DNA of 37,462 bases from Fidelibacterota bacterium (GTDB taxonomy: Bacteria; Fidelibacterota; UBA2242): assembly GCA_049975265.1 (NCBI GenBank), contig JBNGDF010000023.1, positions 1 to 37,462 on the forward strand. The letters run 5' to 3'. Under the pieces are notes generated by a model. It saw only the letters and a list, made by a program, of their open reading frames with translations. It searched no databases and was not told the origin of the DNA. Shown one piece after another: positions 7,127 through 32,417 of the stretch (its first letter is position 1; each line of letters opens with the position of its first letter). The position numbers were made by a program, and so were the translations under genes.

Positions 7127-7183
7127 CCTTTGGATATTGCCAAATTCTCACGTATTTTAAAAAAGTACAATTGGGAATTGCAG

Positions 7184-8221
7184 ATGAAACAATCGCATAT
7201 TGTTCTCCGGATTTTGTTTTTTGCGATCCTGCTTTTTGTATCCAGTTCCTGTGCGCCAAACCTGCGCCTCTCTGTCGTCATTCCGGAGACACCGGCATCG
7301 CAAGAGCGGCAAATCTTTTTAATGACATCCGAAGAATTTGATCGGATTCAGTCAATCACTACCCGCAACAACGAGTATTTCAGCAAAAAATTGAGAAATA
7401 TCTACGACAGTCTCACCGTACTGGACAGGGATTATACTAAAATAGTTACCGAGTTTAAAACCGTTTCGCAGCAGTGTTCCACCCTGCTGGAAGAGCTGCC
7501 GCTTCAGTATTGCGAAAAGATTAAAATCGAACCCGTCCAAATCGCCAAATATGGCGATGTGTGGCGTGTGACAAGCCATATCACAAACCTTGGCGATGAG
7601 GATGTCTGGGGCTTGATCATGTCGGTCAAATTCCAGGACCAATATATTGTCAGGCAGACCGAATTTCCCATATGTATTCAACCCAAACAACGCTTCCTGT
7701 ACCATCAGATAACCTTTGACCTGAGCGATAATATGCCGCTGCAGTATTCCATGGCTACCTACCCCGGCGGTCTGAATGTGTTGCTCCGGGAAGCGCTGAC
7801 CGTGGAGGTTGATTCCGTCCGCTCGATGTTTGTCAATGCCATGGAGGAATGCCAGACAAATCTGACACAGCTGAAACGTCGGATGGAAGCCAAGAGTATC
7901 GAAACAGAGCTCTATAAAGAGAATATCTCCGAATATCTTTACCAAACCGCTATAAATCCGATCAACCGGATCATCGAGCAGAATCTACACAATACCAATT
8001 TTCAGACAAAAGTCAGTGCATCGGATACAATCGTTTTTGAGAATCTGAAAAAGGAAATGTACCAGCTCTTCTCCTATATCGACGTCGACTCCACCGACAG
8101 TCATTACCTCATTCCGGTCGATTTTACATCATCGGATGAATTCATCATTAATATTCAACACCAACGACCCAGAACTCTCTTTTTGGATCGTGACAGATTT
8201 ATCGGCAGGCAGAAACTGTAA
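7184..8221 (+). CDS. Hypothetical lipoprotein with coiled-coil segments
   Basis: The ATG at 7184 gives MKQSHIVLRILFFAILLFVSSSC (lipobox-like; the track starts at TTG 7130). Long ORF on the same strand as the upstream gene; no family recognised. Confidence 0.7.
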   Translation: MKQSHIVLRILFFAILLFVSSSCAPNLRLSVVIPETPASQERQIFLMTSEEFDRIQSITTRNNEYFSKKLRNIYDSLTVLDRDYTKIVTEFKTVSQQCSTLLEELPLQYCEKIKIEPVQIAKYGDVWRVTSHITNLGDEDVWGLIMSVKFQDQYIVRQTEFPICIQPKQRFLYHQITFDLSDNMPLQYSMATYPGGLNVLLREALTVEVDSVRSMFVNAMEECQTNLTQLKRRMEAKSIETELYKENISEYLYQTAINPINRIIEQNLHNTNFQTKVSASDTIVFENLKKEMYQLFSYIDVDSTDSHYLIPVDFTSSDEFIINIQHQRPRTLFLDRDRFIGRQKL

Positions 8222-11355: not shown

Positions 11356-12696
11356 TTAAAATGAATATTTTAGGGTTAACATGCCTATCAGATAGGTTTC
11401 GCGAACCGAATCGAATTTCAGCCGCTCCTCACCGACGATGGGAAACAGATCGGGATAGTCGTATTCCGATTTCGCGAAAGCGCCGGAAACATCCAGCGCC
11501 AGGTTGCCCCAGAGATAGCCGGTTCCGGCAGTGAACCAGTTGCGATCCATACCGGCATCAATGGGATTGGGATCGTGATAAAACCCCATTCTGAAAGGGA
11601 CATCGGAGAGAAAGATGTGCTCGACAGCGACATGTATCTTGAGAACGTCTCTTAAAGGATAACTTGAAGTGTATAGATCCACCGGGAAAGAGGATGGAAG
11701 TCCCTCATTCCGAAACTCGTAATCCACCTTCGCCTTTGACCAGGGCTGATAGACGGCTTCCAGATAAAAAGCGGTTTTGATGATATTCTGCGGCTCGTAT
11801 TTCAGGCTCAGGTGCAATTCAGACGGACGCTTATAGTCGGCGCTTTTAATTTGCCGGGTGGAATCGATGGCGAAAACCGGCAGCAGACTCGTCGTATCGT
11901 GGACGAGATGGAACAAGCCGTCTTCAACAGTGGCATCATATCGAGATTTGTAGGCGGCGGCAAGGCTCGTATGGCGGTTGACATCATAGGATATCCCCAG
12001 GATTACATTTTTCAGAGCCGCGATCGTCGGTTTGGAACGGTAGGAAACCGTCTCCTCAGCAGCGAGATTGGTGCTACTTCTGATCACCTCGACTTCGTAT
12101 CGGTCCTCATATTCGGAGGGCAGTTGAATCTGAAAAGTCGCGGCAATCCGGAGCGGATTGAACAGTCGGTAGGCGCTGCCGATGGTCAGCTGCGCATCGT
12201 TGCCGGTACTGCTCAGGCGATGATAACCCACCAGCGGATCACGATTATATTGTCCATAAACCGATCCCCTTACCTCCTCTTCGTAGCGAAAATTCCGGTT
12301 GGCGAATTGCTGAAACGCCAGCCCGAGATGCAAACGATCGAGAAGACGGTAGTTCATACCGATCTGGATCCCCGGATACCAATTGGCATTTACCACATAG
12401 GTATTGTCGGCTAAAAAATCGCCGAAACTGTCCTGAACGGGAAAAGAGCGTTTCTCGTTGATGGAATTGCCGTTCATTCCGAAATAGACAGCTACTTTTC
12501 TGTCGGAAAGGGCGATCAACGCCGGATTTGTGAAAAGCGCCGCCGCCGATCCTGAATTACCCCAGGAGGAAAAACCAACCCCAATCTGCCGGGTACTGGT
12601 AACCGCCGGCAAATCTCCGATCAGGGGACTGAAGAAACTCTGACCCCGGAGCGAAGCCAATAACATTAAAAAGATCATTAATAATCGCTGTTTCAT
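11356..12696 (-). CDS. Outer-membrane beta-barrel protein, FadL/OmpP1/PorV-like
   Basis: Signal peptide; N-terminal hatch-like 'AALFTNPALIAL'; alternating aromatic strands; terminal beta-signal 'LTLKYSF'. Confidence 0.75.
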   Translation of the reverse strand: MKQRLLMIFLMLLASLRGQSFFSPLIGDLPAVTSTRQIGVGFSSWGNSGSAAALFTNPALIALSDRKVAVYFGMNGNSINEKRSFPVQDSFGDFLADNTYVVNANWYPGIQIGMNYRLLDRLHLGLAFQQFANRNFRYEEEVRGSVYGQYNRDPLVGYHRLSSTGNDAQLTIGSAYRLFNPLRIAATFQIQLPSEYEDRYEVEVIRSSTNLAAEETVSYRSKPTIAALKNVILGISYDVNRHTSLAAAYKSRYDATVEDGLFHLVHDTTSLLPVFAIDSTRQIKSADYKRPSELHLSLKYEPQNIIKTAFYLEAVYQPWSKAKVDYEFRNEGLPSSFPVDLYTSSYPLRDVLKIHVAVEHIFLSDVPFRMGFYHDPNPIDAGMDRNWFTAGTGYLWGNLALDVSGAFAKSEYDYPDLFPIVGEERLKFDSVRETYLIGMLTLKYSF

Positions 12697-15288
12697 TTAA
12701 AACCTATAATCGAGTTGAATTCTAAAATCCGACGTGGATCGTTCGTAATATACCTCCCGCACTCCGGGATCGTTTTCATCAACGCCGTCAGCACCGGTGT
12801 CTACCAAGCCGCCGACGATATTGGTCATGGGATCGTGCAGATCGAAACTGTATTTAAGGCGGATGGAGAAATCCCGTGACAGTCGCGAAAAGGCGGATAT
12901 CCAGCCGTGCAGCGCCCGGGTATCGGAATTGAAAATCCTGAAATCCGTATCCTCAAAATTCCATAAAAAACCCTTGTAGGTCATCAGAGAGCCCATAAGC
13001 TTTATCCGCTCATTCACATTATGCGTGAGGGTTAATCCGAGGGCATCACTGGGTGAACCGGCATTTCCGACGTAAGAGGCTTCACCGGTGGCGGCGTTGG
13101 TCACCAGACGCGAACGCGGGGTGAATTCGGTGAAACCCAGCGAATAGAGCACCCGAATCTGGTTATAGTTGGACAGCCGGACAATCGCCTCCAGCCGCGT
13201 CTCATTCGCCTGATAAAACACCGGTGAAAGGGTATTGGTTTTATCCCTATGTTGCCATTTCTGGCGGATTCTAAAGCGGTATTTGAACACCGGTCGGTAT
13301 TCCAGATTGAGTACCGTGCGGTAATACTGGGCGTTGTCGGCAACTCTGCGCCAGATGTCCTGCTCGGCGGTCATGACCAGCGTGCGGTGCATCTGATAGC
13401 GGGTCGTAAAATAGAACCCCCGTTCGGCTTGGGGCTGGGCGCTGGCGGAATAGAGATAACCAAGAACCGGATCTTTCAGATAGTAAACATCTTCGTAGAT
13501 GGTACCTTTGAAACGATGGTAATTGCTGTATGAGCGCTGATAGGGATTATCGAACTCAAGATCATAATCCCGGTACAGGAGCAGAAAATTAAAGTTGTCA
13601 AACTGCATATATCCCGACAGAACCAGTGCGTGAGGATCGTTTTTCCGCTTCGATAATGACAGGTCTTTATCGAGTTCGGCATATTCACCCTGCAGGGATA
13701 CATTCCGCACAACGGACATAAACTCAATGCCATAGACCCGGCGAACCGCCTGCGCCGCTGACCAGAGTGATGATGTTGCAGAAGAAATGTAGGTTGCGGC
13801 GATTTCGGAATCGGCGGAATTCCCGATCTGGGTCAGATAGCGACTGAGTCCGTCGTCGTTCAGGAGCGTTTCTCTGACCTGTAAATCCATTTCCCGGTCG
13901 TACATGCTCTGGTGCAAGGTGAATCCGAGATATGTCCCCGGCAAAAAGGAGTATTTCAGATTGCCGCCGAGCATCAGTTCCCGAACGGAGTTTACCATGG
14001 GCATCGCGATTTCATTGTATAGCCCATGCTGCATCCGTGGATACATCGTGATCAGGGTTGAAAAAGAGCTGTCCGTGTTGACAACGGCATCGCGGGAGGT
14101 GTAGGAGACAAGTCCGCTTCCAATCAGGTTGCCGATTTGCGATTCCAGGGCAACCCCGCGCAGACCATACTGGGTTGTCCGCGAGGCATTCCCACTGATC
14201 CCGTTCAGGCGTTTGCGCCAGCCGTAGCCGGTTTTGCGGGGCATGAAAAAATCGGTGGCTTCAAGAGTCACTCCCTCACCGAAAGAGGCAATATAATCAC
14301 CGACGATAATCCGGTTGAGCCGCATGAACCCGAGGTTGATGTTGTTGGCTTCGAAAAAGGCTTTAAATTCAGGATAATGCCATGATTTTGGAATATATTT
14401 CCCAACTGCATCATCAATCTTTTCATGATTATCAACAAATTTGTTTAATTTATTAAAAGTAATATCATGATAGATTGTCTTTTCGCCCATATTCCGCAAA
14501 TAAGAGGTCTCCAGGCGGTACTTCGTGCCCCAGTGCAAGCGGAGTTTGTAGTAAATATCCAGCGGATGATCCAATTTGATAAATTCGGTATAGGATTCGG
14601 CATCGTCACTGGGTGTCTGACTGAGTGAAATATTTTTTACTACCGACGAATAACTTCCACCGAAAGCGTGCTTATCAACGCCATCTTCATAACGGATAAA
14701 ATCCTCCAGGTTGGAGAAACCGTAGTAAGAAAGATTATTCGTTCCCCTCAGGTCGCTGCGATTGTTGATCTTACCCTGTCTCTGTCGTCTCACCACGGCG
14801 ACAGCATCGATAGGCGACAGCCCGGCTAAATTGAGCAGATCGAAATAGCCGATGGTGTTGACATCCACCGGATTGTTCAGCATATCAATCCAGGTATTGA
14901 CGAAATTTTCGCTGGCGCCGTCGTCGGAAATCCACTGCTCGACCTTGTAGTAATTATCCTCCACCCGCTGTTGTGACTCCGACAGAAATACGGGTGTCAA
15001 CTTTGTCATCTTTTTTAATTGTAGAAAAGTAGCATAATCGATGCTTTTAATTTTCCGCAGATCGTAGATACTCTTGAAAGGTCCGATATATTCACGGTAT
15101 TCGAGAATATCCAGCAGTTGTCTTTCCGTGATGGGCAGTGTGGCGATTTCCGTCTGTGAAGAAGTGTTCAGATCGACCTTTTCCAGCGAATCTGCCAGCA
15201 GAACGCCGGAAATAAGCAATACTGAGCAGGCGATTACCACAAAGAATCCGATGAATGTATGGATGACTTGATTGCGTCTCTGTTTCAT
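12697..15288 (-). CDS. Protein with two ComEA-like helix-hairpin-helix modules and a large probable C-terminal beta-barrel
   Basis: Signal peptide; 'KVDLNTSSQTEIATLP...ILEYREYIGPFKSIYDLRKIKSI' and 'PVDVNTIGYFDLLNLAGLSPIDAVAVV...GKINNRSDL'; about 650 aa rich in amphipathic strands ending 'FRIQLDYRF'. Confidence 0.85.
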   Translation of the reverse strand: MKQRRNQVIHTFIGFFVVIACSVLLISGVLLADSLEKVDLNTSSQTEIATLPITERQLLDILEYREYIGPFKSIYDLRKIKSIDYATFLQLKKMTKLTPVFLSESQQRVEDNYYKVEQWISDDGASENFVNTWIDMLNNPVDVNTIGYFDLLNLAGLSPIDAVAVVRRQRQGKINNRSDLRGTNNLSYYGFSNLEDFIRYEDGVDKHAFGGSYSSVVKNISLSQTPSDDAESYTEFIKLDHPLDIYYKLRLHWGTKYRLETSYLRNMGEKTIYHDITFNKLNKFVDNHEKIDDAVGKYIPKSWHYPEFKAFFEANNINLGFMRLNRIIVGDYIASFGEGVTLEATDFFMPRKTGYGWRKRLNGISGNASRTTQYGLRGVALESQIGNLIGSGLVSYTSRDAVVNTDSSFSTLITMYPRMQHGLYNEIAMPMVNSVRELMLGGNLKYSFLPGTYLGFTLHQSMYDREMDLQVRETLLNDDGLSRYLTQIGNSADSEIAATYISSATSSLWSAAQAVRRVYGIEFMSVVRNVSLQGEYAELDKDLSLSKRKNDPHALVLSGYMQFDNFNFLLLYRDYDLEFDNPYQRSYSNYHRFKGTIYEDVYYLKDPVLGYLYSASAQPQAERGFYFTTRYQMHRTLVMTAEQDIWRRVADNAQYYRTVLNLEYRPVFKYRFRIRQKWQHRDKTNTLSPVFYQANETRLEAIVRLSNYNQIRVLYSLGFTEFTPRSRLVTNAATGEASYVGNAGSPSDALGLTLTHNVNERIKLMGSLMTYKGFLWNFEDTDFRIFNSDTRALHGWISAFSRLSRDFSIRLKYSFDLHDPMTNIVGGLVDTGADGVDENDPGVREVYYERSTSDFRIQLDYRF

Positions 15289-20948: not shown

Positions 20949-22244
20949 TCAGTCGTTGCCGCGGGAGACGTTTTGTTCCGCCAGCACCACATACTGAAAG
21001 CGCACAATTCTGGCATTGCCGGTATCCGCAACGTAGAGAATATTGTCCTCAAAGACCAGCGCTTCAGGACGATCCAAAATATAGCCGACCTCCACCGAAT
21101 CAACCGGTTCGGTGCCGATGTTGCGGATAAATGCGCCGGTCCCGCTGAATGAATGTATATAATTCAGCCCGGCGTCGGCGACATAGATGACACTTCGTGA
21201 ATCAATGCAAATATCCCTGGGGATTCCAAACCGGCTGGTGTTCATGATTTCATCGGCTCCGGGATCGAAAAGGGTTCGGTAGGAACCGCCCGCCAATCCG
21301 TGACAAAGAAAATTGCCACCGGTCTGCGTGTAGTAAATATTCCCGCTGGCGTCAAGGGAAATACTGTTTGGCTCCATCACATATCCGGCACCGCTGCCCT
21401 GCCCGGTGACTACCTCGGAAAAACGGCATCCGTAAGCGAATACGATGGATTGGTCGGATAATCGCAATACATCCCTGATGTAGTAATACCCTTTAATAAT
21501 TCGGTTGTAGCGATAATCCATCAGATACAAACCAGCATCGTAGTCCTGTCCAAATGCGGCAACATCAACGATCCGGGAATTGCGTGGATCACCGTATTCA
21601 TCTTTGAGAATATTTTTAATATCATAGCCATCGTAAAATATATGAACTCCCAGAACCTCGGCGATTCTTTCCTCATTCCGCTCAAATTGCACATCCAAAA
21701 CAGCATAACCCGAATTTGAATAGAACAACAAAGAATCTATCTGCGTCAGTCGGTGTGTGTCGTTGGTTTGACTGTTGAACAGCAGAAGCTCGGTTGCAAC
21801 TGAATCCACTCCCACGTTATTGAAAAACTGGTTCCAGGCGTAGAGCCGATTACTACCGTCGGCGATGATCAGATTCATTTTGCTGTCCTGCGTCAGTCGC
21901 AATGGTTCGATAGCACTGACGCCTGGCACTTCCAGACTCGCCAGACCGGAAAAATCGTTCCCGTAGTCGTCAGATTCTACCAGATTGCCGGCACGATCCA
22001 GCACAATAATCCGGTTGTTGCCGGAATCGGCGATAAACAGGTAACTATCTTCACCAATCAGAATATCTTTGATTGCATTAAATCCGTAAACGGACTGTTC
22101 CCAATTTGGCATGACCTGAATATAGCTGGTATCCGCCTGTTCTGACTCATAAAATGTGGGGAGCGGTTCTTTCGAGACGCAGTCAGACAGTACCATCGTA
22201 AGGACCACCGCCATTACACAGATGATAAAAGTGGTGATTCTCAT
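20949..22244 (-). CDS. NHL-repeat beta-propeller protein, probable lipoprotein
   Basis: Repeats 'LFIADSGNNRI', 'LIIADGSNRL', 'IYVADAGLNYI', 'LYVADTGNARI'; hydrophobic N-terminus followed by Cys22 (atypical Asp at -1). Confidence 0.85.
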   Translation of the reverse strand: MRITTFIICVMAVVLTMVLSDCVSKEPLPTFYESEQADTSYIQVMPNWEQSVYGFNAIKDILIGEDSYLFIADSGNNRIIVLDRAGNLVESDDYGNDFSGLASLEVPGVSAIEPLRLTQDSKMNLIIADGSNRLYAWNQFFNNVGVDSVATELLLFNSQTNDTHRLTQIDSLLFYSNSGYAVLDVQFERNEERIAEVLGVHIFYDGYDIKNILKDEYGDPRNSRIVDVAAFGQDYDAGLYLMDYRYNRIIKGYYYIRDVLRLSDQSIVFAYGCRFSEVVTGQGSGAGYVMEPNSISLDASGNIYYTQTGGNFLCHGLAGGSYRTLFDPGADEIMNTSRFGIPRDICIDSRSVIYVADAGLNYIHSFSGTGAFIRNIGTEPVDSVEVGYILDRPEALVFEDNILYVADTGNARIVRFQYVVLAEQNVSRGND

Positions 22245-23242
22245 AATGCCAGCCTTATTGAAATCCTCTGAATATCAGTAAGATAGACCATTTTGGTAAA
22301 GGAATAATCAAAAATAATTCTTTTCTTTCCCAGAGGCAGTTGTAATCCGATTCCCAGATTGAATCGTTCTTCCCGGTTGTTGATAATTTTTCCCCCTCTC
22401 AGGAACAGATATTTGGCAAAAGCATTTTCCACACCCACGGAAAAGGTCTCGATATTGTCCACAGGATGGTTCAGCTGCCCTGCCAGTGTCAGGCGATTCC
22501 AGTCCACATCGATAATCTCCATCGCCGCACCGAGCCGGAAAATGGTTGGCAGGGGAAAATCTTCGTAATCGGCTCTGACGGTACCCCCTTCGATGACCGG
22601 CTTGTCGTAGCCGCCCCGAAAGGCGACTTCAGGACCGAAATTTGTCAACGAAACAGCGAAACGCAGACTTTTATAGCCGGTCCGGTAGTACGTACCGATA
22701 TCGATCATCGGGGTGTGGCTGCTGACGTCAGCAATATTTTCTTCCACGTATTTCAGGGTCAATCCCCAGGAAAAATGTTCCGTTACCCGCTGGGCTGCAG
22801 ACAGACCGATGAAATAGTCGGAATAGTAGAATTTTTCACCGGTTCCGTGGGGCATATACTCCGTAGTCACGTCCATGGCGTTGGTGTGCAAAAAACCACC
22901 CGAAAGACCGAAGGCAAAATTTGGGGAATACTTATATGCTATTCCAAAGAAGTCGTACTGAATATCAGCCGGCCATTCGATACGTGAGGTATAAAATTCT
23001 GAACCCAACATCTGCGCCAGCCCGGCAGGATTCCAGTAAAGACAGGAAGCGTCGTCGGCAACGCCGATAAAAGCGCTTCCCATGGCTGCGCTGCGGCTGC
23101 CGATGCCGATTTTTAAAAAAGTCAATGCGGAAGTTCCGGCGCGCTGGTAGCCGAGACTTGGAAAAATTTCGATGCCGGAAACCGAACCCCGCAGAAGCAG
23201 AATCAAACCAAGAATAACCGAGGCTTTCATTTTTTGGTACAT
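22241..23242 (-). CDS. PorV/PorQ-family outer-membrane protein
   Basis: 'AGTSALTFLKIGIGSRSAAMGSAF...DDASCLYWNPAGL', 'LPTIFRLG', 'LFLRGG', 'FDYSF...QRISI'; start overlaps the stop of the TonB-dependent receptor (TAATG). Confidence 0.9.
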   Translation of the reverse strand: MYQKMKASVILGLILLLRGSVSGIEIFPSLGYQRAGTSALTFLKIGIGSRSAAMGSAFIGVADDASCLYWNPAGLAQMLGSEFYTSRIEWPADIQYDFFGIAYKYSPNFAFGLSGGFLHTNAMDVTTEYMPHGTGEKFYYSDYFIGLSAAQRVTEHFSWGLTLKYVEENIADVSSHTPMIDIGTYYRTGYKSLRFAVSLTNFGPEVAFRGGYDKPVIEGGTVRADYEDFPLPTIFRLGAAMEIIDVDWNRLTLAGQLNHPVDNIETFSVGVENAFAKYLFLRGGKIINNREERFNLGIGLQLPLGKKRIIFDYSFTKMVYLTDIQRISIRLAL

Positions 23243-25992
23243 TAAAACTTTACCTTCACTCCTATCATTACGTTGCGGGGTTCCTGGTATCGGGAAGGAT
23301 CGGTGGGCGGTAAATCGGTTAAGGAGTCGTACCAGGAACGGGGAATCGGATCACCGGGCTCATAAGCCCGACCGGTGACCGGATTGATCCGGCGGGCGAT
23401 TTTCGCATCCAGCAGATTTTCAATCTGTACAGACAGGTCGAAACCGAGTTTATTCACAGAAAAACCTTTCGTTACTTTCAGGTCCCAGCGTTGCCAGTAG
23501 GGAGACAGCGCCGAATATTCCGCATCGGCATATTTTTCCAGCTCGAGGTCAATGATCGGCGTGTAGCGTTTTCCGGAAGAGACCTGCCAATGAATATATA
23601 TCCCGAAATCACGGGGAAGTGGCAGAAAGCCCAGTTTTGCCCGATTGTCTTTTGGGATATAAAAATTGAAATCCGCCGACATACGCAGAGGAACATCCCA
23701 ACTCATAAAGGTTTCCGCCAGCGATTTTTCCTTGTTGACTGACACCTTATCGAGGGCTTCATTGGGTGATGAACTTTTCCCGGAAGTAATTGAGTAAGTC
23801 CCGTTCAATCTGACAGACAGCAGCTCCGAGAAACGGCGCTGCAGGTAGACCTCCAGACCACGGGAACGGGCATAATCCATATTGAAATACATAAACGGTC
23901 TTTTTTGTCCCGACTCTCCCTGAATCGTCAGTCTTTCCGATGTGGCATAATCGAACAGGTCTTTGTAAAAAGCCGTGATATTGATGATCTGATCTTCGCT
24001 GAATTTATGTTTGATGCCGATTTCATAGGCAACCGTCGTAGTGGGATTTAAATCCGGATTGCCCAGCAACGGACTGGCACCGAGTTTGGTTTTATTCAAT
24101 CCGGCGTAAATGTACTCGTAGTTTGGTCGCTGCGAGAAATGTCCGTAGGAAAAGAACAGGACATCATTATCGGTCAGCGGATGCGAAATTCCCAGTCGCG
24201 GACTCAGGTGGGCTTTGCCTCTTTTCCCGGTGATCCCGAAAGTACCGTCCCTGAAATCTTCCCGAAAATGCTGCGAAAGGTGCGGCGCCAGTTCCTGGTT
24301 ATCAATTAACTCTGTACAGATTTCATCCAGCAGCATGTAGTCAAGCCGGAGACCGATATTGACGATCATCCCGGAATAGACAATTTTATCCTGAATATAC
24401 GCAGCGCCGGCATTCGGCGTGACGGTGTAAATATCCCAGGAGCCGCCAAAACTGTTCTGCACACCGGTCAGCCACGGATCGTCGATATTAATAACCTGCA
24501 GCTCGGTGAATTCGGTTTCGAAACCGGTTTTAAGACGATGATTATTGGACACCTGACTGGTCAGTTCCGTTTTGATCGTCCAGGTGTCGGAATAGTGGTC
24601 ATGCCAGTTCGAGGCGTCGCCGGTATCGTAAAATCCATCCCGTATCCAGACCGATACATCGCCATCGGGAAAATCACTGAAATAGCGAATCGGCTTGATA
24701 TCATTGCGGATATCATATTCATCGAAATATTTTCCCTGTACAGCCGAGTGAACGTTGATGAACACCCGACCGATGTCCATTTCCAAAAATGTCCGCTGAT
24801 TGAAAGAGTGCGTCAATTGCAGATTGTACTGAATACCGTCCCAGGTCATGGTATTGTAATGATCCAGCCAGTACATGTATTCATAAGGAAAATACACCTT
24901 CGTGTTGGCAATTGACTGAAAATAGCCTTGATTAATTTGCAGGGAGCGTTTATAGGTTCCGGAGAGTTTGGTGTTATGATACTTCCAGGTCAGTTTCAGC
25001 AATCCCGACCAGTTGTTTTCCTCCCGCTGGGCAAACGGCTGGTAAGCCTTTTCTGCCGGAATAAGTTCCGATGCCGATGGTAAATAGGTATCCGATATAA
25101 ACATGTACGCATTGGAAAAAAAGGTCAGCGAGCCGGGTAAATTTAAGCCCAGCGCCGGTAATAATCTGGCTGAAAAAGGCTCGGGACCACCCAGCGATAT
25201 TTCCACCACATCGGTATTAAAGTTTTGCACTGATTCGATGAAAATATGATCGGATTTCAGGGCGATACTGCCGTGATATTCCTCACCACCCTCTTTTGTT
25301 TTCACCTCAATGATGCCGGACATCGCCTGTCCGTATTCGGCGTTGAATCCACCGGTGATGACCTCCAGCTCTTCGATGGCATCGGTACTCAGGAAGATGC
25401 CGTAATTCTTACCCGACAGTGGGTCTTTCGTGGAAACACCGTCAATAATATAGAGATTCTCGTCGGCTCGTCCCCCACGGATATGGATCTCATTATCGAC
25501 TTTGACGACCCCCACCTGTTGCTCCAGGATATCATCCATGCTCTCAATTATTTTAGTGTCGATATCATCACTGCTGACCCGCTGCAATGAACTGGTTAAA
25601 TCCGGCTCCAGCAGCGGCTTTTTCCCGATGACAACCACCTCCTGCCCGAACGACAGTATCGTCGGTTCCATCGGAATCTCTAACTCGACCACCGCTGTTT
25701 CATCCACACTGATTCCGGTGTAGAGCTGAACCTTGTAACCAATGGTGCTGACTTCGATATCGTAATCACCGGGACTCAGTCCCGTGATGATAAAATTGCC
25801 GTTCAGGTCTGTAGCGGAACCTTTATATGTGCCTTTGACGATCACATTGGCACCGATGATGGGTGTTTCATTTTCCTTATCATAGACCCTGCCTTTGATC
25901 GTGCCGCCCGCAGCATGGATACTGAATAACAGCAAAAAAATCAATGTTATATTGAGATTGAATTTTTGCTTATTACGAATAGGGATACTCAA
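23242..25992 (-). CDS. TonB-dependent receptor with N-terminal carboxypeptidase-regulatory-like domain
   Basis: 'GTIKGRVYD...PIIGANV...ATDLNGNF'; plug 'IHIRGGRADENLYIIDG' and 'GGFNAEYGQAMSGII'; 'SPRLGISHP', 'GNPDLNP', 'ENLLD'; terminal 'PRNVMIGVKVKF'. Confidence 0.95.
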   Translation of the reverse strand: MSIPIRNKQKFNLNITLIFLLLFSIHAAGGTIKGRVYDKENETPIIGANVIVKGTYKGSATDLNGNFIITGLSPGDYDIEVSTIGYKVQLYTGISVDETAVVELEIPMEPTILSFGQEVVVIGKKPLLEPDLTSSLQRVSSDDIDTKIIESMDDILEQQVGVVKVDNEIHIRGGRADENLYIIDGVSTKDPLSGKNYGIFLSTDAIEELEVITGGFNAEYGQAMSGIIEVKTKEGGEEYHGSIALKSDHIFIESVQNFNTDVVEISLGGPEPFSARLLPALGLNLPGSLTFFSNAYMFISDTYLPSASELIPAEKAYQPFAQREENNWSGLLKLTWKYHNTKLSGTYKRSLQINQGYFQSIANTKVYFPYEYMYWLDHYNTMTWDGIQYNLQLTHSFNQRTFLEMDIGRVFINVHSAVQGKYFDEYDIRNDIKPIRYFSDFPDGDVSVWIRDGFYDTGDASNWHDHYSDTWTIKTELTSQVSNNHRLKTGFETEFTELQVINIDDPWLTGVQNSFGGSWDIYTVTPNAGAAYIQDKIVYSGMIVNIGLRLDYMLLDEICTELIDNQELAPHLSQHFREDFRDGTFGITGKRGKAHLSPRLGISHPLTDNDVLFFSYGHFSQRPNYEYIYAGLNKTKLGASPLLGNPDLNPTTTVAYEIGIKHKFSEDQIINITAFYKDLFDYATSERLTIQGESGQKRPFMYFNMDYARSRGLEVYLQRRFSELLSVRLNGTYSITSGKSSSPNEALDKVSVNKEKSLAETFMSWDVPLRMSADFNFYIPKDNRAKLGFLPLPRDFGIYIHWQVSSGKRYTPIIDLELEKYADAEYSALSPYWQRWDLKVTKGFSVNKLGFDLSVQIENLLDAKIARRINPVTGRAYEPGDPIPRSWYDSLTDLPPTDPSRYQEPRNVMIGVKVKF

Positions 25993-25993
25993 T

Positions 25994-27637
25994 TTAATGA
26001 CCTAAAAACTCCCGGATCACTTCCTTCATATTGCCGTCGCCGTTGGTATTGTGCAGTGTAAAAGACAAAAAGATTAACTTCACTTCTCCTTCCGTGGGAT
26101 ATTTTACACCGATAACCGGTTCACCCGGCCACTCGTTTCGGCTGGATGCGGGCAGCTGATACAACGTATCGGCGTCGGCGCCCACAATCAGTCCGTCAGG
26201 ATTGGAGATGATTTTTCCGCTGGTAACTTTCAAATCCACATAGCTGGAGTCGCGACTGTAAATAATCTGCCCGGGACCGATGCGATAATCACCTGCCTTG
26301 AACCGATACCGGTCCGCAACTATTTCAAATCCATCGGAGGATAAAAAGGCAAATAACGAATCGTTGTTATCAATTGCATTGATGGAGCTTATCAATATAT
26401 GATGATTTCGTTCCGGCTGCAGAATATACGCCAGAATTTCCGGTGATATATTCGGCAGATGCGATTGCCCGTCCGCGTAATAAATAATATAGTTGAAAAA
26501 TGATAAGGTTTCCTCAATGTCAATTTTCGAATAGGGAATCCGGTCTTCGATATGCCAGACGGAGTAATTTTCTGTTCCCAGAATTTCATCCAGAGCTGCC
26601 GGATAAAGTTCATCGCCATCGGTTTTCAAGGCGTAGTCATCAATAAAAAGGGTACCGTTGCGCTTCGGTTCTTCAACGATCCAGGTGCCCTTCTCCCGGG
26701 GAAAACGAATAATTTCGCTGAACTGTCCCGCGATGTCCACCACCGTCAGATAGAATACCCATTCCCCTTCCGGAATGTCGCGCAGTGTAAGCACTCTCTG
26801 GGAACCATCAAGAATGCCGTGAATTTCACAATTTTGAAAATCAGCGAGAGTTGCCGGAGATTCGGACATTTTTCGGTTCAATGCATAATGAAAATTCACA
26901 AGGGTTTCATTCCCGTCGGGATCATAGCCGATCCAGTTGAAAGTCCGGGTAGTAAACGTCCTGGAAGTAAGTGTATCCGGAGGATTGCTGCCATAGACGA
27001 AACTGACTTCCGGCGGGGAATTCTTAATAGGGAAAAGACCAAACGCAGGTGTCGGATCAACGGCGCCGGTCGTATCGGTTGGCGGCAAATTATAAAATTC
27101 ATCACCCCGCAGTGTCGTTAATACGGCGCCAAAGGTGGTCTGAATTCCCGGCGTATCTCCGCGGGACAGAGCAATATCGGTCTCATCATAGATTCTATAT
27201 TGACTGCCAATATCGGCAAAATACTCGTTATCTATGTCTGATTTGGTTGCTTCCTGATAATTCCATTCGGCACAGTTATCGACTGCTTTGATCTTGATCC
27301 AGAAATCATCCGTCAATTGGCGAATCGGGATGTGGAAGGTGTCCGATTCTGCAGTTGTCCAGATACAGGAATCCGGGACAGTTTCGGCAAAGTGACTCCA
27401 CTGATAATAGTAACCCATCACTTCACCATCGGGATCACTGCCCCACCAGTGTAAAATCTGAGTACTGAAGGTAGTATCAAATCCGGCTGCGGTGGGCTGA
27501 ATGAACAGTCTTGTGTCCGGTCTTTGATTGGGATGAGGATTGGATGTCAATCCCTTTTCACAAGAGAAATAGCCAATGGCGCAGACAACCGTGATAGTGA
27601 ATACCGCTGATAACGATTTGCTCAAAGACTCCACCAA
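25994..27637 (-). CDS. Lipoprotein with two related Ig-like modules, function unknown
   Basis: 'GYFSC' lipobox; repeated module 'NQRPDT...LHWWGSDPDGEVMGYYY...IKAVDN' and 'NSPPEV...FNWIGYDPDGNETLVNFHY...VVDIAG'; 1 bp from the receptor gene. Start is TTG 27637, GTG 27634 or TTG 27625. Confidence 0.78.
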   Translation of the reverse strand: MVESLSKSLSAVFTITVVCAIGYFSCEKGLTSNPHPNQRPDTRLFIQPTAAGFDTTFSTQILHWWGSDPDGEVMGYYYQWSHFAETVPDSCIWTTAESDTFHIPIRQLTDDFWIKIKAVDNCAEWNYQEATKSDIDNEYFADIGSQYRIYDETDIALSRGDTPGIQTTFGAVLTTLRGDEFYNLPPTDTTGAVDPTPAFGLFPIKNSPPEVSFVYGSNPPDTLTSRTFTTRTFNWIGYDPDGNETLVNFHYALNRKMSESPATLADFQNCEIHGILDGSQRVLTLRDIPEGEWVFYLTVVDIAGQFSEIIRFPREKGTWIVEEPKRNGTLFIDDYALKTDGDELYPAALDEILGTENYSVWHIEDRIPYSKIDIEETLSFFNYIIYYADGQSHLPNISPEILAYILQPERNHHILISSINAIDNNDSLFAFLSSDGFEIVADRYRFKAGDYRIGPGQIIYSRDSSYVDLKVTSGKIISNPDGLIVGADADTLYQLPASSRNEWPGEPVIGVKYPTEGEVKLIFLSFTLHNTNGDGNMKEVIREFLGH

Positions 27638-27640
27638 GGG

Positions 27641-27672
27641 AAAAGTGCGCCCCGACGATGTCGGGACGCACT
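27641..27672 (-). terminator. Intra-cluster stem-loop with short U-tract (terminator, attenuator or mRNA stabiliser)
   Basis: Minus strand AGTGCGTCCCGAC-ATC-GTCGGGGCGCACT-TTT: 13-bp stem with one G-U pair, 12 nt after the stop of 27685-30258. Confidence 0.75.
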
Positions 27673-27684
27673 AAGTGTTGTTAA

Positions 27685-30258
27685 CTACTTCAAAAGTATC
27701 ATCTTTTTGGATTGTACATAATCACCGGCAACGATCTGGTAGATATACACACCTGCCGGCACAAGCCGGTTGTATTTATCCAATCCGTTCCAGGTAAGCG
27801 TATAATTTCCGGAAGGCTGATTCTTTTGCACTAACGTAATCACCTCTTGACCAATAATATTGTAGACTTTCAGTGTGACGTTACCACTTTTTTCGATTCC
27901 GTAATTGATGGTCGTCGTCGGGTTGAATGGATTCGGATAGTTCTGATCGAGGTAATAGCTGACCGGTACATTGACCTTGTCTTTGTCAATTCCAACAACC
28001 GTGCCGATATCATCATTATCCCTGACGATGATCTCATAATAGCTATAGGAATAGGTTAAATTACCGGTAATAAATTCAATCTGATCGCCGACAACCGGTT
28101 CATAATCATAATTACAGCTTGATTTGTATCCGTTGATTTGAACCACATAGCCATGATCGTCGGTTACTGTCCAGTCACCATTGTCATTTTTCGCGGATAT
28201 AACGGTTACTGAGGGGATTTTAACTAAAACACCTTCGTACTTTTCCGAGATTGTCGAATCACAGGGAATATCTGCTGAGCTGACTTCTACGGCTATGGCA
28301 TCGGTCGTACCGCTTAATTTAGTAATCGAAGCAACATTCCCGATTTCCGTCAATCCGTAATATTCCTGGACGGTGCCGACAACCTCCACGTTATCGCCAA
28401 TTGTCAAGTTCGGATATTCATCGGAGTAAATCATAATTCCGTTCCAAGCTGCGGCAGGATGGCTGGAATTTGAAAAATCCTGAACATGAAAAGACCGGGT
28501 ATACGTGGATGAATCAGATGTAACTGTCCCTGTAAATTTGACAAGTTTACCTTTCAGCGGTGAATCTCCACTGGCATCGTCAGTGAACTGAATATCGTAA
28601 ATCGTGGTCTCTGTCGGTCCTAAAACCATGAATGAATATAAAGAATCCGGAGCCGTCGCCGGGTCAAGACTTTCATTGTTATCATTGTCAGTCGCATGAA
28701 TGAAAAACCGGACCGTATCACCGTTATCCAGCGGGTCAATTTTAGCTTCATAGGCATAACCAGAGGTTTTTATCAGGATCTGTGGGGTAAAAGTACCACT
28801 GTTAACCGAATAATAGAGAGCCGCTTCACTAATCGTACCATCGTCGAGAATAGATGTTGTTACAGTTATGGTATCTTCGGGTTGAGGATTGACCGGATAA
28901 TATCGTGTGCCACTGATGATTGGCGGACCCACCATAACAACGATATCACGATCATACCTCGGTAGTAGCTCATATACGCCCCAGTGATGATACAAAACAC
29001 CGGTAATGGATTCAAACATTGTTCCGACCGCCGGTGCGCCGAGCGATACACTGTCCGAGTAGCCGAAATTAACCCATAAACCACGCCCGCTGGCATCAAC
29101 GACCAGTGGATCGCCATAGTTATTGACACTGTCAACCATGACATTCACAACTTGCATCAGGACATTTTCATACTTTTCCGGTTCATACCCGGGGATGCCA
29201 TCATAGTAGAGGCTGTCATTAAATATACTGGTATTCACAACAACAGGTTCCGGCAAATCGCAGTACATTGCGTGCACCACAATCTCTTCGGTAGCGAAAA
29301 ATTCCGTCGTATTACCGGGATAAGTATTACTCCAGTATTCGCTGACATAACCGGTAACCGAAATAGAGTCTCCTTCGAAAACGGTCGCCACTTCCTCACT
29401 GAAATAATCGTAAATCATAATACCACTCCAGGCACCGCCTCCCGATTGCTGCAGGTAGTATTTTTTTCCATCACCTCCATACATAAGCCCGGACTGAACC
29501 GTCACGATCCCGGTTATCGTCAGTGTATCGCCGTAGAACAACGAACTGTCATTGCCGGCAATCACATCACACTCCCGAACCTGCTGGATGGATTGGATCA
29601 TGGTTGACCCGTTAATCGCTCCAAAATCGTAAGCAGCGCGGGGTTGGATTTCATTGTGACCATAGGATAAAAAGGCGACGCCTACGATCCAGTCAATGAC
29701 ATCACCAACTTTTTGCTTATAGAAGTAATTATCATCGGCTCTGGTACCAATTTTACATTCACCTGAGCCGTCGTCCACCAGCCAGGCATAGGAACCGTCT
29801 GTCTCATCGGTAACGGTTACATTTTTTACTTTGACGAGAACACTTTCGTACTGTTCGGCACTATCAATTCCGGCGGTTGTCCCTTCGACCGGTTCAATCC
29901 ATTTGCAAGAATCCAATTTAACCAGTTCCGTTACGTCAACTATTTCAGTCAGACCGTAATACTCATCTACTTTACCGGTGACTTGGACACTGTCGCCTTC
30001 CATAACTTCATAGGTACTACTCGAACCTATATAGACCTGAATCCCGTTCCAGGGACCGGGCGCATCCTGCATGAAAAAGTAGCCGCTGCTGAAAGTATAA
30101 CGCCCCACCGTCACAATCCCGGAGATAGTAACCACCTGATCTTTTAAGGGAGAATCCCCGGTGGGATCGGTAGTATACTGGATGTCGTAAATGGGCGTGA
30201 TCGTCTGTGCCAGCAACACACTTCCCAGCAATACAATGAATAGTAACGATTTTCGCAT
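27685..30258 (-). CDS. Secreted protein with three tandem-OB-fold repeats, one Ig-like domain and a FlgD/T9SS type A-like C-terminal domain
   Basis: Signal peptide; repeats beginning 'TPIYDIQ...GDSPLKDQVVTISGIVT', 'TMIQSIQ...DSSLFYGDTLTITGIVT', 'TTIYDIQ...GDSPLKGKLVKFTGTVT', each with 'W[NS]GI.IY', 'GD.V.V.G.V.EY', 'E.YE.VL' (YhcR/ExeM-like OB pattern); 'QNYPNPFNPTT...KKMILLK'; GGAGG SD. Confidence 0.87.
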   Translation of the reverse strand: MRKSLLFIVLLGSVLLAQTITPIYDIQYTTDPTGDSPLKDQVVTISGIVTVGRYTFSSGYFFMQDAPGPWNGIQVYIGSSSTYEVMEGDSVQVTGKVDEYYGLTEIVDVTELVKLDSCKWIEPVEGTTAGIDSAEQYESVLVKVKNVTVTDETDGSYAWLVDDGSGECKIGTRADDNYFYKQKVGDVIDWIVGVAFLSYGHNEIQPRAAYDFGAINGSTMIQSIQQVRECDVIAGNDSSLFYGDTLTITGIVTVQSGLMYGGDGKKYYLQQSGGGAWSGIMIYDYFSEEVATVFEGDSISVTGYVSEYWSNTYPGNTTEFFATEEIVVHAMYCDLPEPVVVNTSIFNDSLYYDGIPGYEPEKYENVLMQVVNVMVDSVNNYGDPLVVDASGRGLWVNFGYSDSVSLGAPAVGTMFESITGVLYHHWGVYELLPRYDRDIVVMVGPPIISGTRYYPVNPQPEDTITVTTSILDDGTISEAALYYSVNSGTFTPQILIKTSGYAYEAKIDPLDNGDTVRFFIHATDNDNNESLDPATAPDSLYSFMVLGPTETTIYDIQFTDDASGDSPLKGKLVKFTGTVTSDSSTYTRSFHVQDFSNSSHPAAAWNGIMIYSDEYPNLTIGDNVEVVGTVQEYYGLTEIGNVASITKLSGTTDAIAVEVSSADIPCDSTISEKYEGVLVKIPSVTVISAKNDNGDWTVTDDHGYVVQINGYKSSCNYDYEPVVGDQIEFITGNLTYSYSYYEIIVRDNDDIGTVVGIDKDKVNVPVSYYLDQNYPNPFNPTTTINYGIEKSGNVTLKVYNIIGQEVITLVQKNQPSGNYTLTWNGLDKYNRLVPAGVYIYQIVAGDYVQSKKMILLK

Positions 30259-30269
30259 GTTCTTTCCTC

Positions 30270-32417
30270 CTATTTTATGATTGCGAACTTACCTATTGAT
30301 ATTTTATCATTATCCAAATCTTCAACTGCAAACATATACAGTCCGGCAGCAACCGCCTGGTTATGACGTGTAATCAGGTCCCAGGCATGTTCTCCGCCGG
30401 AAAAAACCGGTTCGGTTCCGAAAGTCACTTCCGCCAGCAATTCTATATCCGATCCGTTATAAGTCGCAGCATCATGCTGAATCACATCGATCAGCTCCCC
30501 GGAAAGTGTATAAATCCGGATTTCCGCCCGGGGAGGCAGATTGGTGAACCAGATCATCCGCTCCCTTTCGCCAAATCCATCCCAGTCGGCGGTTGCCCGA
30601 TAGGGATTCGGATAAACACCGATTTTACGTTCCAGCCTTGGATTGGTCGTAGTTCCCGGAATGGCATATACCTTAGAAGCGGCACTTTCCGAACTTTCGA
30701 TATTATTGGATGCATCACCAAAATCAAAGGCGACGACCGAGTACCAGTTCCGTGCCGGCCAGCCATTTTTAAGATCGTAATCGGTAAATTTATACTGAAA
30801 TTCCATAGAATCACCGTTAATTATAAACCACCGTGAAGATGGATTTCCTTCGGAATCATAGATCCGTGCCTGATCGAGTCCGGTATTATAATTGGTAAAA
30901 CCGATAGGCTGCACCTCAAATTTGTCAATAATATCGTATTGTGCCAACAGGGTGTTCTCTTTCCCGACCCCGGTCTTGCGACCCCCGTAAATCCGATAAC
31001 CTTCGAAATCGATGATTTCGGTAACCGGGTCGTATGCGTCGGGATTATTCGGGTCTTCGGCAGTGTCATCCCAGTATACGGTTATCTGCTGATCGCCGGG
31101 CACCACATGCATGTTCGGCGAGGGCGGCGGACCCGGCAGCTTATACCCCAGATCGTAGGCGCGCTGAGCCCAGGCAGCATTTTCATAGAGCTCCTGGCGA
31201 CGGTCTTCCGTATCATCCTGTGAGTCGGTGGACCACAAACCGCATACAACAGCAAAGGTAATCTCGATCTCCTGACCCGCCTCCCAGACCGTTTCATTGA
31301 ATTCATTTTGCAAATTTCCAAAGGGTCCGGCAGAAATCAGCACCATCCAGCTGGCGGGCTCCGTAATCAGTTCATAACTCGAACCGGGATACAAATGCAT
31401 CCTCTCATACATCGCTTCGTCACCAATGGGTGTGGAGTGGTGATCAACTCCCTGAAGCTCGTTCCCATTCCAGGGCCATTGATCGTAATAGACATCAAAA
31501 TTTGATTCTGCGGCGGAGGGCGATCCCAGATATTTTACACCAAAATAGCTCTGCGCCCAGCCCTGATCACCGTCGAGATCCGTCTGATATGCCAGCGAGA
31601 GTGAATCGATAAAATTGTTGCGGTTATCGTACCAGTCCCAGCCGCCCCCGGGCTCGCAATTACTGGTAAAGTTCATATTCCCCACCGAGGCATCAAACCA
31701 GAGCCCCACATAGGGATCAATGATCTGGTCTTCTGATATATTTTTCAAGCGATAATTCAGGATCACAAAGGAATTGGCATAAGGATAATTCCAACAATAG
31801 GTTTCGAGATGAACTTTAATTCCCAGCGGCTCATGGGGAATCTGGATTTCCGTGCCCGGAATCACCTGGGCAGTATCGGTAAACTCCGCAATCATATCCT
31901 GGTGCGAAACCGCCGCACTGTCATAATGGCTCGCCAACTGTTGAATAACGGGATCGGTGGTCCGTTTGTTGAATGTCGATCGAATCCGGACAATGTCGCT
32001 TGAGTCGGCGGTACTGGAAAATTCTCTGCCTGCCGGTCGGGAACCGTATTCATCAGACACGAATCCGTCGGTGATTGCCGATGAAACCAGAATTTTGTTA
32101 TTCTTTATTCCTCCCACCCAAAGACCGGCGTAGGAAAAATGCTCCACCTGTTCCTGTTTGTATTCCGAATACAATTTATATCGGCAGGATGGCTGGACAC
32201 AGGTCTCATATCCCTCACCCAAAATCCCGTAATTTGTCACCGTCATACCGATCTGACCGGCAAAGGTATAGTGAGTAAAATCGCGGATATTCGGCTTCTG
32301 CAGAATCTGAGACATGGTTTGAACGGAAACGATCAGCCCCACGATCCCCGATAAGATCATGCTGAACAAATAAACAGAGTTGTTTAACCGGCGGTTTTTG
32401 ACCGTTTTCTTAGCCAT
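30270..32417 (-). CDS. Secreted protein with FN3-like domain and 'VYPNPY...WDL...KFAIIK' C-terminal sorting-type domain; function unknown
   Basis: Signal peptide; 'GMTVTNYGILG', 'AGLWVGG', 'PLGIKVHLETYCW', 'PPPSP...VPGDQQITVYWD...DFEGYRIY', 'IGVYPNPY...IWFTNLP...IRIYTLSGELI...WDLIT...AAGLYMFAV'. First gene of the cluster. Confidence 0.8.
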   Translation of the reverse strand: MAKKTVKNRRLNNSVYLFSMILSGIVGLIVSVQTMSQILQKPNIRDFTHYTFAGQIGMTVTNYGILGEGYETCVQPSCRYKLYSEYKQEQVEHFSYAGLWVGGIKNNKILVSSAITDGFVSDEYGSRPAGREFSSTADSSDIVRIRSTFNKRTTDPVIQQLASHYDSAAVSHQDMIAEFTDTAQVIPGTEIQIPHEPLGIKVHLETYCWNYPYANSFVILNYRLKNISEDQIIDPYVGLWFDASVGNMNFTSNCEPGGGWDWYDNRNNFIDSLSLAYQTDLDGDQGWAQSYFGVKYLGSPSAAESNFDVYYDQWPWNGNELQGVDHHSTPIGDEAMYERMHLYPGSSYELITEPASWMVLISAGPFGNLQNEFNETVWEAGQEIEITFAVVCGLWSTDSQDDTEDRRQELYENAAWAQRAYDLGYKLPGPPPSPNMHVVPGDQQITVYWDDTAEDPNNPDAYDPVTEIIDFEGYRIYGGRKTGVGKENTLLAQYDIIDKFEVQPIGFTNYNTGLDQARIYDSEGNPSSRWFIINGDSMEFQYKFTDYDLKNGWPARNWYSVVAFDFGDASNNIESSESAASKVYAIPGTTTNPRLERKIGVYPNPYRATADWDGFGERERMIWFTNLPPRAEIRIYTLSGELIDVIQHDAATYNGSDIELLAEVTFGTEPVFSGGEHAWDLITRHNQAVAAGLYMFAVEDLDNDKISIGKFAIIK

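Follow-up and report, generated by a model that had tools for sequence, protein, structure and literature searches.

An outer-membrane protein of 863 amino acids (aa), encoded on contig JBNGDF010000023.1 of a Fidelibacterota genome (assembly GCA_049975265.1; the whole contig of 37,462 nucleotides is called the window below), is predicted to join two ComEA-like helix-hairpin-helix (HhH) modules to a large β-barrel. On the strength of the structure model and the gene neighbourhood, we consider it on balance probable that this protein, here named type A, belongs to a conserved DNA-scavenging operon and admits DNA fragments through a gated channel, which is plugged by its acidic helices and inner HhH module and serves nutrition. 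The superfamily is linked to DNA by two independent lines, the operon of type A and the loss of a sister form, type B, together with ComEC and DprA. It likely handles DNA, type A doing so for food. An earlier note on this sequence had proposed a DNA channel with a built-in ComEA ratchet. The barrel, its basic lumen wall and DNA as the likely substrate stood up to analysis, whereas the ratchet did not.

The predicted type A barrel and its operon

The mature protein was modelled with AlphaFold2 on 89 alignment rows, with a mean predicted local distance difference test score (pLDDT) of 89 and a predicted template modelling score (pTM) of 0.86. In the modelled chain two HhH modules, separated by a pair of acidic helices, precede the barrel strands. 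Residues 209–863 form 24 antiparallel strands, which are joined at one end of the barrel by turns of 2–6 residues and at the opposite end by long loops, those after strands 5, 7, 9 and 13 being long and conserved. The barrel that the earlier note had read from amphipathic strands was thus recovered, and the protein shows the predicted hallmarks of its class: a signal peptide, an even number of amphipathic strands, short periplasmic turns and a C-terminal aromatic residue, which lies here in QLDYRF and is retained among relatives. The claimed signal peptide was evident as a hydrophobic N-terminal stretch; a lipoprotein reading from a lipobox-like VIAC within it was dropped, VIAC being absent in several close orthologues. 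HHH_3 (PF12836) was the sole Pfam family found on the protein, above cut-off and in two stretches (E 8.7e-17) that coincide with the two modules expected in the first 200 residues.

The PDB sequence search matched the HhH part only, with no solved relative of the barrel. Structurally the barrel resembled large barrels throughout, all of them loosely. The best matches were protein-export ushers of 24 strands (Z 13–16), superposed end to end over 370–380 residues at 8–10% identity, a similarity that reflects strand number; Occ, AlgE and OprP were also found. The lumen face was taken as the polar side of each strand, by alternation rather than coordinates and with no control barrels scored, and so assigned the wall carries a charge of +12.5 in the type A family, +4.2 of it from strand 17. 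The basic stretches singled out earlier could be placed, PRKTGYGWRKR in the loop after strand 5 and KYRFRIRQKWQHRDK as strand 17. The simplest role for a barrel of 24 strands that is plugged and has a basic wall would be that of a conduit. The loop after strand 3 holds an AT-rich insertion of about 26 codons (window 14380–14460; GC fraction 0.25 versus 0.48), occupied in 4 of 255 alignment rows; this is a variable surface loop, perhaps with phage pressure behind it.

Relatives of type A comprised 145 proteins, 184 representatives at E ≤1e-30 and 322 loci in GTDB. Given the 145 relatives and 322 loci, the architecture is not a matter of chance. The nearest were labelled Marinimicrobia (Marinisomatota), followed by Calditrichota, Cloacimonadota and WOR-3.

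The gene overlaps the 303-aa gene by ATGA (15285–15288) and abuts the 446-aa gene through TAAATG (12694–12699), which agrees with the translational coupling between two barrels noticed earlier; the flanking products are PorV/PorQ-like and FadL-like. The order LTD/OB cargo, PorV-like, type A, FadL-like, 5'-nucleotidase and EEP nuclease was maintained down to 38% identity. Neighbours were counted in 80 of the 322 GTDB loci, each gene being scored among loci with enough flank. The PorV-like gene was present in 71/71 loci, the LTD-OB gene in 63/63, the FadL-like gene in 77/77, the 5'-nucleotidase in 68/70 and the EEP nuclease in 36/52. The core operon contains no gene of the TonB-dependent receptor family; such a receptor stood about 9–10 kb upstream in 3 of the 34 loci with at least 9 kb of upstream DNA. 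A promoter scan stayed at chance level (20 versus 18.7), and no RNA holder was listed.

In the cargo proteins one recognises the LTD and OB portion of ExeM, a nuclease, whereas the EEP domain lies here on a separate gene (PMC6085458). One relative's locus adds a HAD acid phosphatase and an orthologous cargo protein with DUF5689 above cut-off. DUF5689 is a domain of DdbD from a Bacteroides DNA-utilisation locus (PMC12478041) and also occurs in the Riemerella transformation protein RA0C_RS04920 (PMC8459023).

These components suggest a route in four steps. LTD/OB proteins, exported by the type IX secretion system (T9SS) and held at the surface via the PorV-like and perhaps the FadL-like barrel, would bind extracellular DNA, and the EEP nuclease would cut it. 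The fragments are predicted to pass along the arginine-rich wall of strands 16–18 and 22–3. The polyanion may push the acidic plug aside, with no TonB box needed, a step whose chances we hold to be evenly balanced. In the periplasm the 5'-nucleotidase, by established enzymology, yields phosphate and nucleosides, the consumption of which would set the direction.

Type B and its co-loss with competence genes

Searches that started from the barrel region of a remote relative led to proteins of 640–720 aa, some labelled Flavobacteriales, Bacteroidota and KSB1. A genome search centred on Flavobacteriales-labelled loci brought no kinship to light. Types A and B were aligned by HHalign at 99.96% (E 5.7e-39, 619 columns) starting at the acidic helices, and homology thereby supports the likeness to Bacteroidota-annotated proteins that had been pointed out. 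Type B, annotated as 'HhH-domain protein' and of Bacteroidota type, is homologous along its length and shares the 24-strand model (pLDDT 88.6), the loop pattern and the PorV-like partner; it differs in its single HhH module, shorter loops and housekeeping neighbourhood. Its inferred wall charge was +9.1 and that of its N-terminus −8. In a FastTree phylogeny of 53 rows picked by hand, types A (23 rows) and B (22 rows) were split by a branch with SH-like support of 99. The host genome carries a type B copy of its own (G000:C21:3751-5574). Just upstream of this PorV-like and type B pair lies a MotA/PomA-like stator gene (L095, G000:C21:2079-2924), which was absent in the four other loci read.

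An intermediate third group (P0243, P0258, P0263, P0264, P0265 and P0285) has two more basic HhH modules and is labelled Spirochaetes and Caldisericota; the superfamily thus reaches beyond the Fibrobacterota–Chlorobiota–Bacteroidota (FCB) group. Riemerella OMP71 and OMP76, 22-strand proteins, were rejected as members. Riemerella RA0C_RS02645 has been described as a periplasmic protein that carries three HhH domains, and PGN_0421 of P. gingivalis as ComEA with its domain at 94–165; by these descriptions neither is probably a barrel.

The distribution was examined in 151 Marinisomatota genomes, each at least 90% complete. Type A was present in 64, type B in 105, either in 124, ComEC in 128, DprA in 125, secretin in 114 and SprA in 151; the type B count comes from a second profile, a weaker first one having found 74 genomes including 2 type A cross-hits. 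The genomes with SprA include streamlined ones of 0.8–1.1 Mb without ComEC, DprA and secretin. Type B was found in 105 of the 130 genomes with ComEC or DprA versus none of the 21 lacking both. When the 13 streamlined f11 genomes were left aside, type B was still absent from all eight genomes lacking ComEC and DprA, and secretin was kept in 8/8. The counts of type B and ComEC also agreed by family (f15 2/6, f18 2/4, f19 20/22), and in locus L133 ComEC follows type B directly.

The loss can be seen at the site itself. In G091, G108 and G124 the stretch glycosyltransferase-amiA-murI-folC-rho is assembled, and type B and its PorV-like partner are both gone. In G062 the site is occupied by a 371-aa gene without significant match (L150:6293-7405), which could be an eroded remnant; an 11-residue resemblance of its product to the NExGxYxG motif was not significant. 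Type B was therefore missing from an intact site in all four genomes without ComEC and DprA that were compared (G091, G108, G124 and G062); murI was not found in four further such genomes.

Type A behaves differently. Outside f11 it does not track competence (2/8 genomes lacking ComEC and DprA versus 62/130), and G108 and G124, both without ComEC and DprA, retain type A with its whole operon, from which a nutritional role for type A is likely. Judging by its distribution, type B would be the variant of this gate that goes with competence.

The PorV/PorQ-like gene accompanies both types. Beyond the 71/71 type A loci it precedes type B in 27 of 31 Marinisomatota loci and in five metagenome loci out of eight, with no upstream DNA in the remaining three; these five Bacteroidota-type loci include four that are near-identical. 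Such constancy, together with protein-export ushers as the best whole-barrel matches, would suit a display or assembly scaffold, in which barrel and partner export or hold T9SS-type DNA-binding surface proteins and the products come in through a TonB-dependent receptor or the FadL-like barrel. We regard this as unlikely, although it is the strongest of the alternatives. Records of Bacteroides finegoldii and Prevotella hold the barrel without a PorV-like partner (Parabacteroides has both at the same site), SprA occurs in 151/151 genomes and the barrels do not, and the usher match amounts to 8–10% identity explained by strand number. A complex prediction of the barrel (aa 204–863) with the 303-aa PorV-like protein scored 0.04 against a mark of 0.32, uninformative either way.

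The HhH modules as a probable plug

The first module superposes on ComEA (8dss) with Z 11.5 and a root-mean-square deviation (rmsd) of 1.4 over 65 aligned residues. ComEA of V. cholerae depends on its GIG hairpin and on K62/K63 both to bind DNA and for uptake; transformation is abolished by K63E as well as by G60E (PMC3879209). The ComEA positions were transferred to V. cholerae numbering via the motif in that source and read across the type A alignment of 255 full-length rows. The Gly60 equivalent was Gly in none of 240 rows in module 1 and none of 250 in module 2. The equivalent of Lys63 was K/R in 15/243 and 0/250 rows, respectively, and D/E in 245 of the 250 rows of module 2. Median net charges were −3.5 for module 1, −5 for the linker and 0 for module 2. 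Judged from these residues, the losses weaken the prospect of DNA binding by the modules and do not abolish it. The second hairpin of the inner module is conserved, with the consensus GLSYYGYRN.

Superpositions of TonB-dependent receptors begin inside the receptor plug, at model residues 85–89 of type A (mature numbering), and receptor plugs superpose from model residues 1–14 of type B, which from roughly residue 50 onwards also matches the helices inside the VDAC and Tom40 lumen. The pTM of type A exceeds the barrel's share of the chain (0.79). From these superposition starts and the pTM above the barrel share we infer, indirectly, that the acidic helices and the inner HhH module are modelled in a plug position; the HhH modules would then likely act as a plug, not a ratchet. 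A simple motif, itself loose, found a TonB box near the mature N-terminus in 0/112 sequences. The coevolution signal was noise (255 rows, effectively about 150) and was given no weight.

A ratchet channel, in which the fused ComEA modules bind long DNA in the periplasm and pull it through for pilus-free transformation, is improbable. The ComEA fold is confirmed, the distant relatives P0258, P0263 and P0265 retain more basic hairpins, and the GLSYYGYRN hairpin could be a new binding face. Against this stand the lost Gly and Lys essential to ComEA, the D/E at module 2, an acidic N-terminus, and an operon with nucleases and a nucleotidase; moreover, one or two tethered modules presumably cannot load along DNA like free ComEA. 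The host, which also has SprA, carries a type IV pilus locus, a free ComEA, ComEC and DprA, so nothing forces a pilus-independent competence role on its type A copy, and the operon points to nutrition. The complete chromosome of G016 (L139, L151) counts in favour of the ratchet: ComEC, DprA and type A are present, but secretin gave no match and the amiA site is without type B. Elsewhere in that genome lies a weak match (E 7.5e-5) to the syntenic gene of G025 discussed below. In genus g19 secretin is absent in 7 of 7, which makes a test case for pilus-free uptake.

Least probable of the alternatives is a substrate-specific porin for nucleotides, short oligomers or phosphate, like OprP/OprO or Occ, with loops and HhH modules narrowing the pore: the arginine ladder of strand 17, the long conserved loops, the structural matches to Occ, AlgE and OprP and the 5'-nucleotidase as most constant enzyme neighbour accord with it, but it leaves unexplained why type B disappears along with ComEC and DprA, two proteins that require long DNA, and 24 strands exceed the 16–18 of such porins.

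Table 1. Features of the type A gene and its surroundings in the window
Feature	Position	Strand	Basis or remark
HhH-barrel protein type A, 863 aa	12697..15288	-	Open reading frame, Pfam, structure model
Signal peptide, aa 1-32	15193..15288	-	Hydrophobic N-terminus; cleavage after LLA32 inferred from orthologue N-termini
Outer ComEA-like (HhH)2 module, aa 36-93	15010..15183	-	First hairpin Gly deleted; acidic across family
Acidic two-helix linker, aa 99-138	14875..14994	-	Conserved W-x-S-x-E-G turn; likely plug part (indirect, superposition ranges)
Inner ComEA-like module, aa 139-199	14692..14874	-	Near-invariant Asp161 at ComEA Lys63 position; common to type B
Predicted 24-strand outer-membrane barrel, aa 209-863	12700..14664	-	Model
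Conserved basic motif PRKTGYGWRKR, aa 350-360	14209..14241	-	Long loop after strand 5
Strand 17, KYRFRIRQKWQHRDK	13246..13281	-	R671, R673, R675, K677, R681 on inferred lumen face (alternation)
PorV/PorQ-like small barrel, 303 aa	15285..16196	-	NF033709 E 2.3e-10 (below cut-off); PorV 6h3i E 0.025
LTD + OB-fold protein with T9SS-like C-terminal domain, 659 aa	16193..18172	-	Likely surface DNA-binding protein
PKD + LTD + OB-type T9SS cargo, 872 aa	18175..20793	-	Resembles non-catalytic half of ExeM
FadL/PorV/BamG-superfamily barrel, 446 aa	11356..12696	-	PF03349 E 2.5e-9 (above cut-off)
Exported 5'-nucleotidase, UshA-like, 544 aa	9716..11350	-	Pfam/NCBIfam
Predicted lipoprotein with EEP nuclease-family domain, 486 aa	8234..9694	-	Pfam
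Upstream co-directional block	20949..32417	-	Outside conserved core

Standing of the proposal and comparison with known systems

Several observations weigh against a DNA-fragment channel. Some 8 kb upstream, the window encodes a TonB-dependent receptor accompanied by OB-fold cargo, and the host genome holds 24 matches to such receptors, so pieces of DNA could get in elsewhere. A Riemerella screen of 3,000 mutants named as essential a different outer-membrane protein, homologous to DdbC (PMC8459023). The co-loss amounts to some 4–6 independent losses among related metagenome-assembled genomes, whose kinship makes Fisher test values an overstatement, and concerns type B, not type A, while type A without competence genes was seen in two genomes of one genus. 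Of the 130 genomes with ComEC or DprA, 25 had no detected type B; some of these copies are likely too diverged for detection, and syntenic genes of 466 and 264 aa in G025, which matched neither type B nor its partner significantly, are perhaps such a diverged pair. As to the modules, Arg stands where K62 would be in module 1 of the window's own type A, and the free ComEA of the host is itself without the exact K62/K63 pair and keeps GIGEK in its second hairpin only. The plug placement is read from the residue at which loose superpositions (Z 10–13, rmsd 4–8) begin to align, the lumen faces depend on strand alternation as described above, and an acidic plug alone could account for a basic wall without any nucleic acid.

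The upstream block encodes an NHL lipoprotein, a PorV-family barrel, the TonB-dependent receptor, a lipoprotein, a multi-OB T9SS cargo and a 715-aa protein with a PorZ-like tail. The 715-aa gene, unannotated, and the multi-OB gene stand downstream of the operon in lineages L059, L068, L080, L082 and L083, and there may be a second DNA-linked module. At the other end of the operon, two open reading frames (window 5714–8221; 470 and 363 aa) without convincing Pfam or NCBIfam match converge on that end, and window 3967–5451 encodes a 494-aa protein with CsgG/LpoB-like, PEGA and small β-barrel domains.

A wider proposal is put forward tentatively, as it is rather doubtful. The pair of PorV-like protein and HhH barrel might be a third outer-membrane route for DNA beside pilus-secretin and the TonB-dependent DdbC: an FCB-wide 24-strand gate, shut by an acidic, repurposed ComEA fold and opened by displacement by DNA. 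Type B would be the missing outer-membrane step of FCB competence, pilus-less Bacteroidota included, and type A its sister in a DNA-eating operon of marine and sediment lineages. DNA passage over the outer membrane in competent Bacteroidota has been called unresolved in the case of P. gingivalis (PMC11532111), and the HhH-barrel superfamily is a specific candidate for this step, backed by the type B co-loss. If correct, type A would explain extracellular DNA as a source of P, N and C for abundant uncultured marine and sediment bacteria, namely Marinisomatota and the relatives labelled Calditrichota, Cloacimonadota and WOR-3. With its width, basic wall and plug, the barrel would also be a natural pore for nucleic acids of a new kind.

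By the tests applied, type A is not a member of ComEA, the TonB-dependent receptors, the ushers or the T9SS core and forms an undescribed family; a search of the open literature, with subscription journals and supplements outside its scope, found no description of the family. ComEA (PF12836, TIGR00426, TIGR01259; PDB 8dss, 8dfk, 2duy) shares with type A the (HhH)2 fold, present twice in the latter, the periplasmic side and the connection to DNA uptake. It is a small soluble or inner-membrane-anchored protein, whereas the type A modules are acidic, lack the hairpin Gly and Lys and are fused to a barrel in an 863-aa chain; the scores (31.2 versus 152.35 bits for TIGR01259, 20.3 versus 53.1 for TIGR00426) fall below the cut-offs, and the host encodes a separate ComEA. 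TonB-dependent transporters combine a PF00593 barrel and a PF07715 plug with 22 strands; type A has 24 strands and no Pfam or NCBIfam match to them. The chaperone-usher proteins FimD and PapC, plugged 24-strand barrels, come closest in whole-barrel geometry, but type A has no usher Pfam match and no chaperone or pilin neighbours, and its plug would be helical and N-terminal. Likeness to the T9SS shuttle and anchor barrels PorV and PorQ belongs to the 303-aa partner, below family cut-offs, and not to the large barrel, which is not SprA either (151/151 genomes, versus 64 with type A, 105 with type B and 124 with either). Type B forms a branch distinct from type A and its distribution is tied to ComEC and DprA.

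The closest parallel in gene content is offered by ddbABCDEF of Bacteroidales and the Riemerella pair RA0C_RS04915/04920, where nucleases share a locus with a transporter of the outer membrane and a surface protein with the OB-like DUF5689, and one machine family serves transformation and DNA catabolism (PMC12478041, PMC8459023). The ddb transporter is annotated as TonB-dependent and is unrelated to type A, a predicted 24-strand barrel with HhH modules, and the type A locus differs further by its flanking PorV-like and FadL-like barrels, T9SS cargo and 5'-nucleotidase. As in the ddb loci, a secreted nuclease and likely DNA-binding surface proteins stand beside a predicted outer-membrane transporter.

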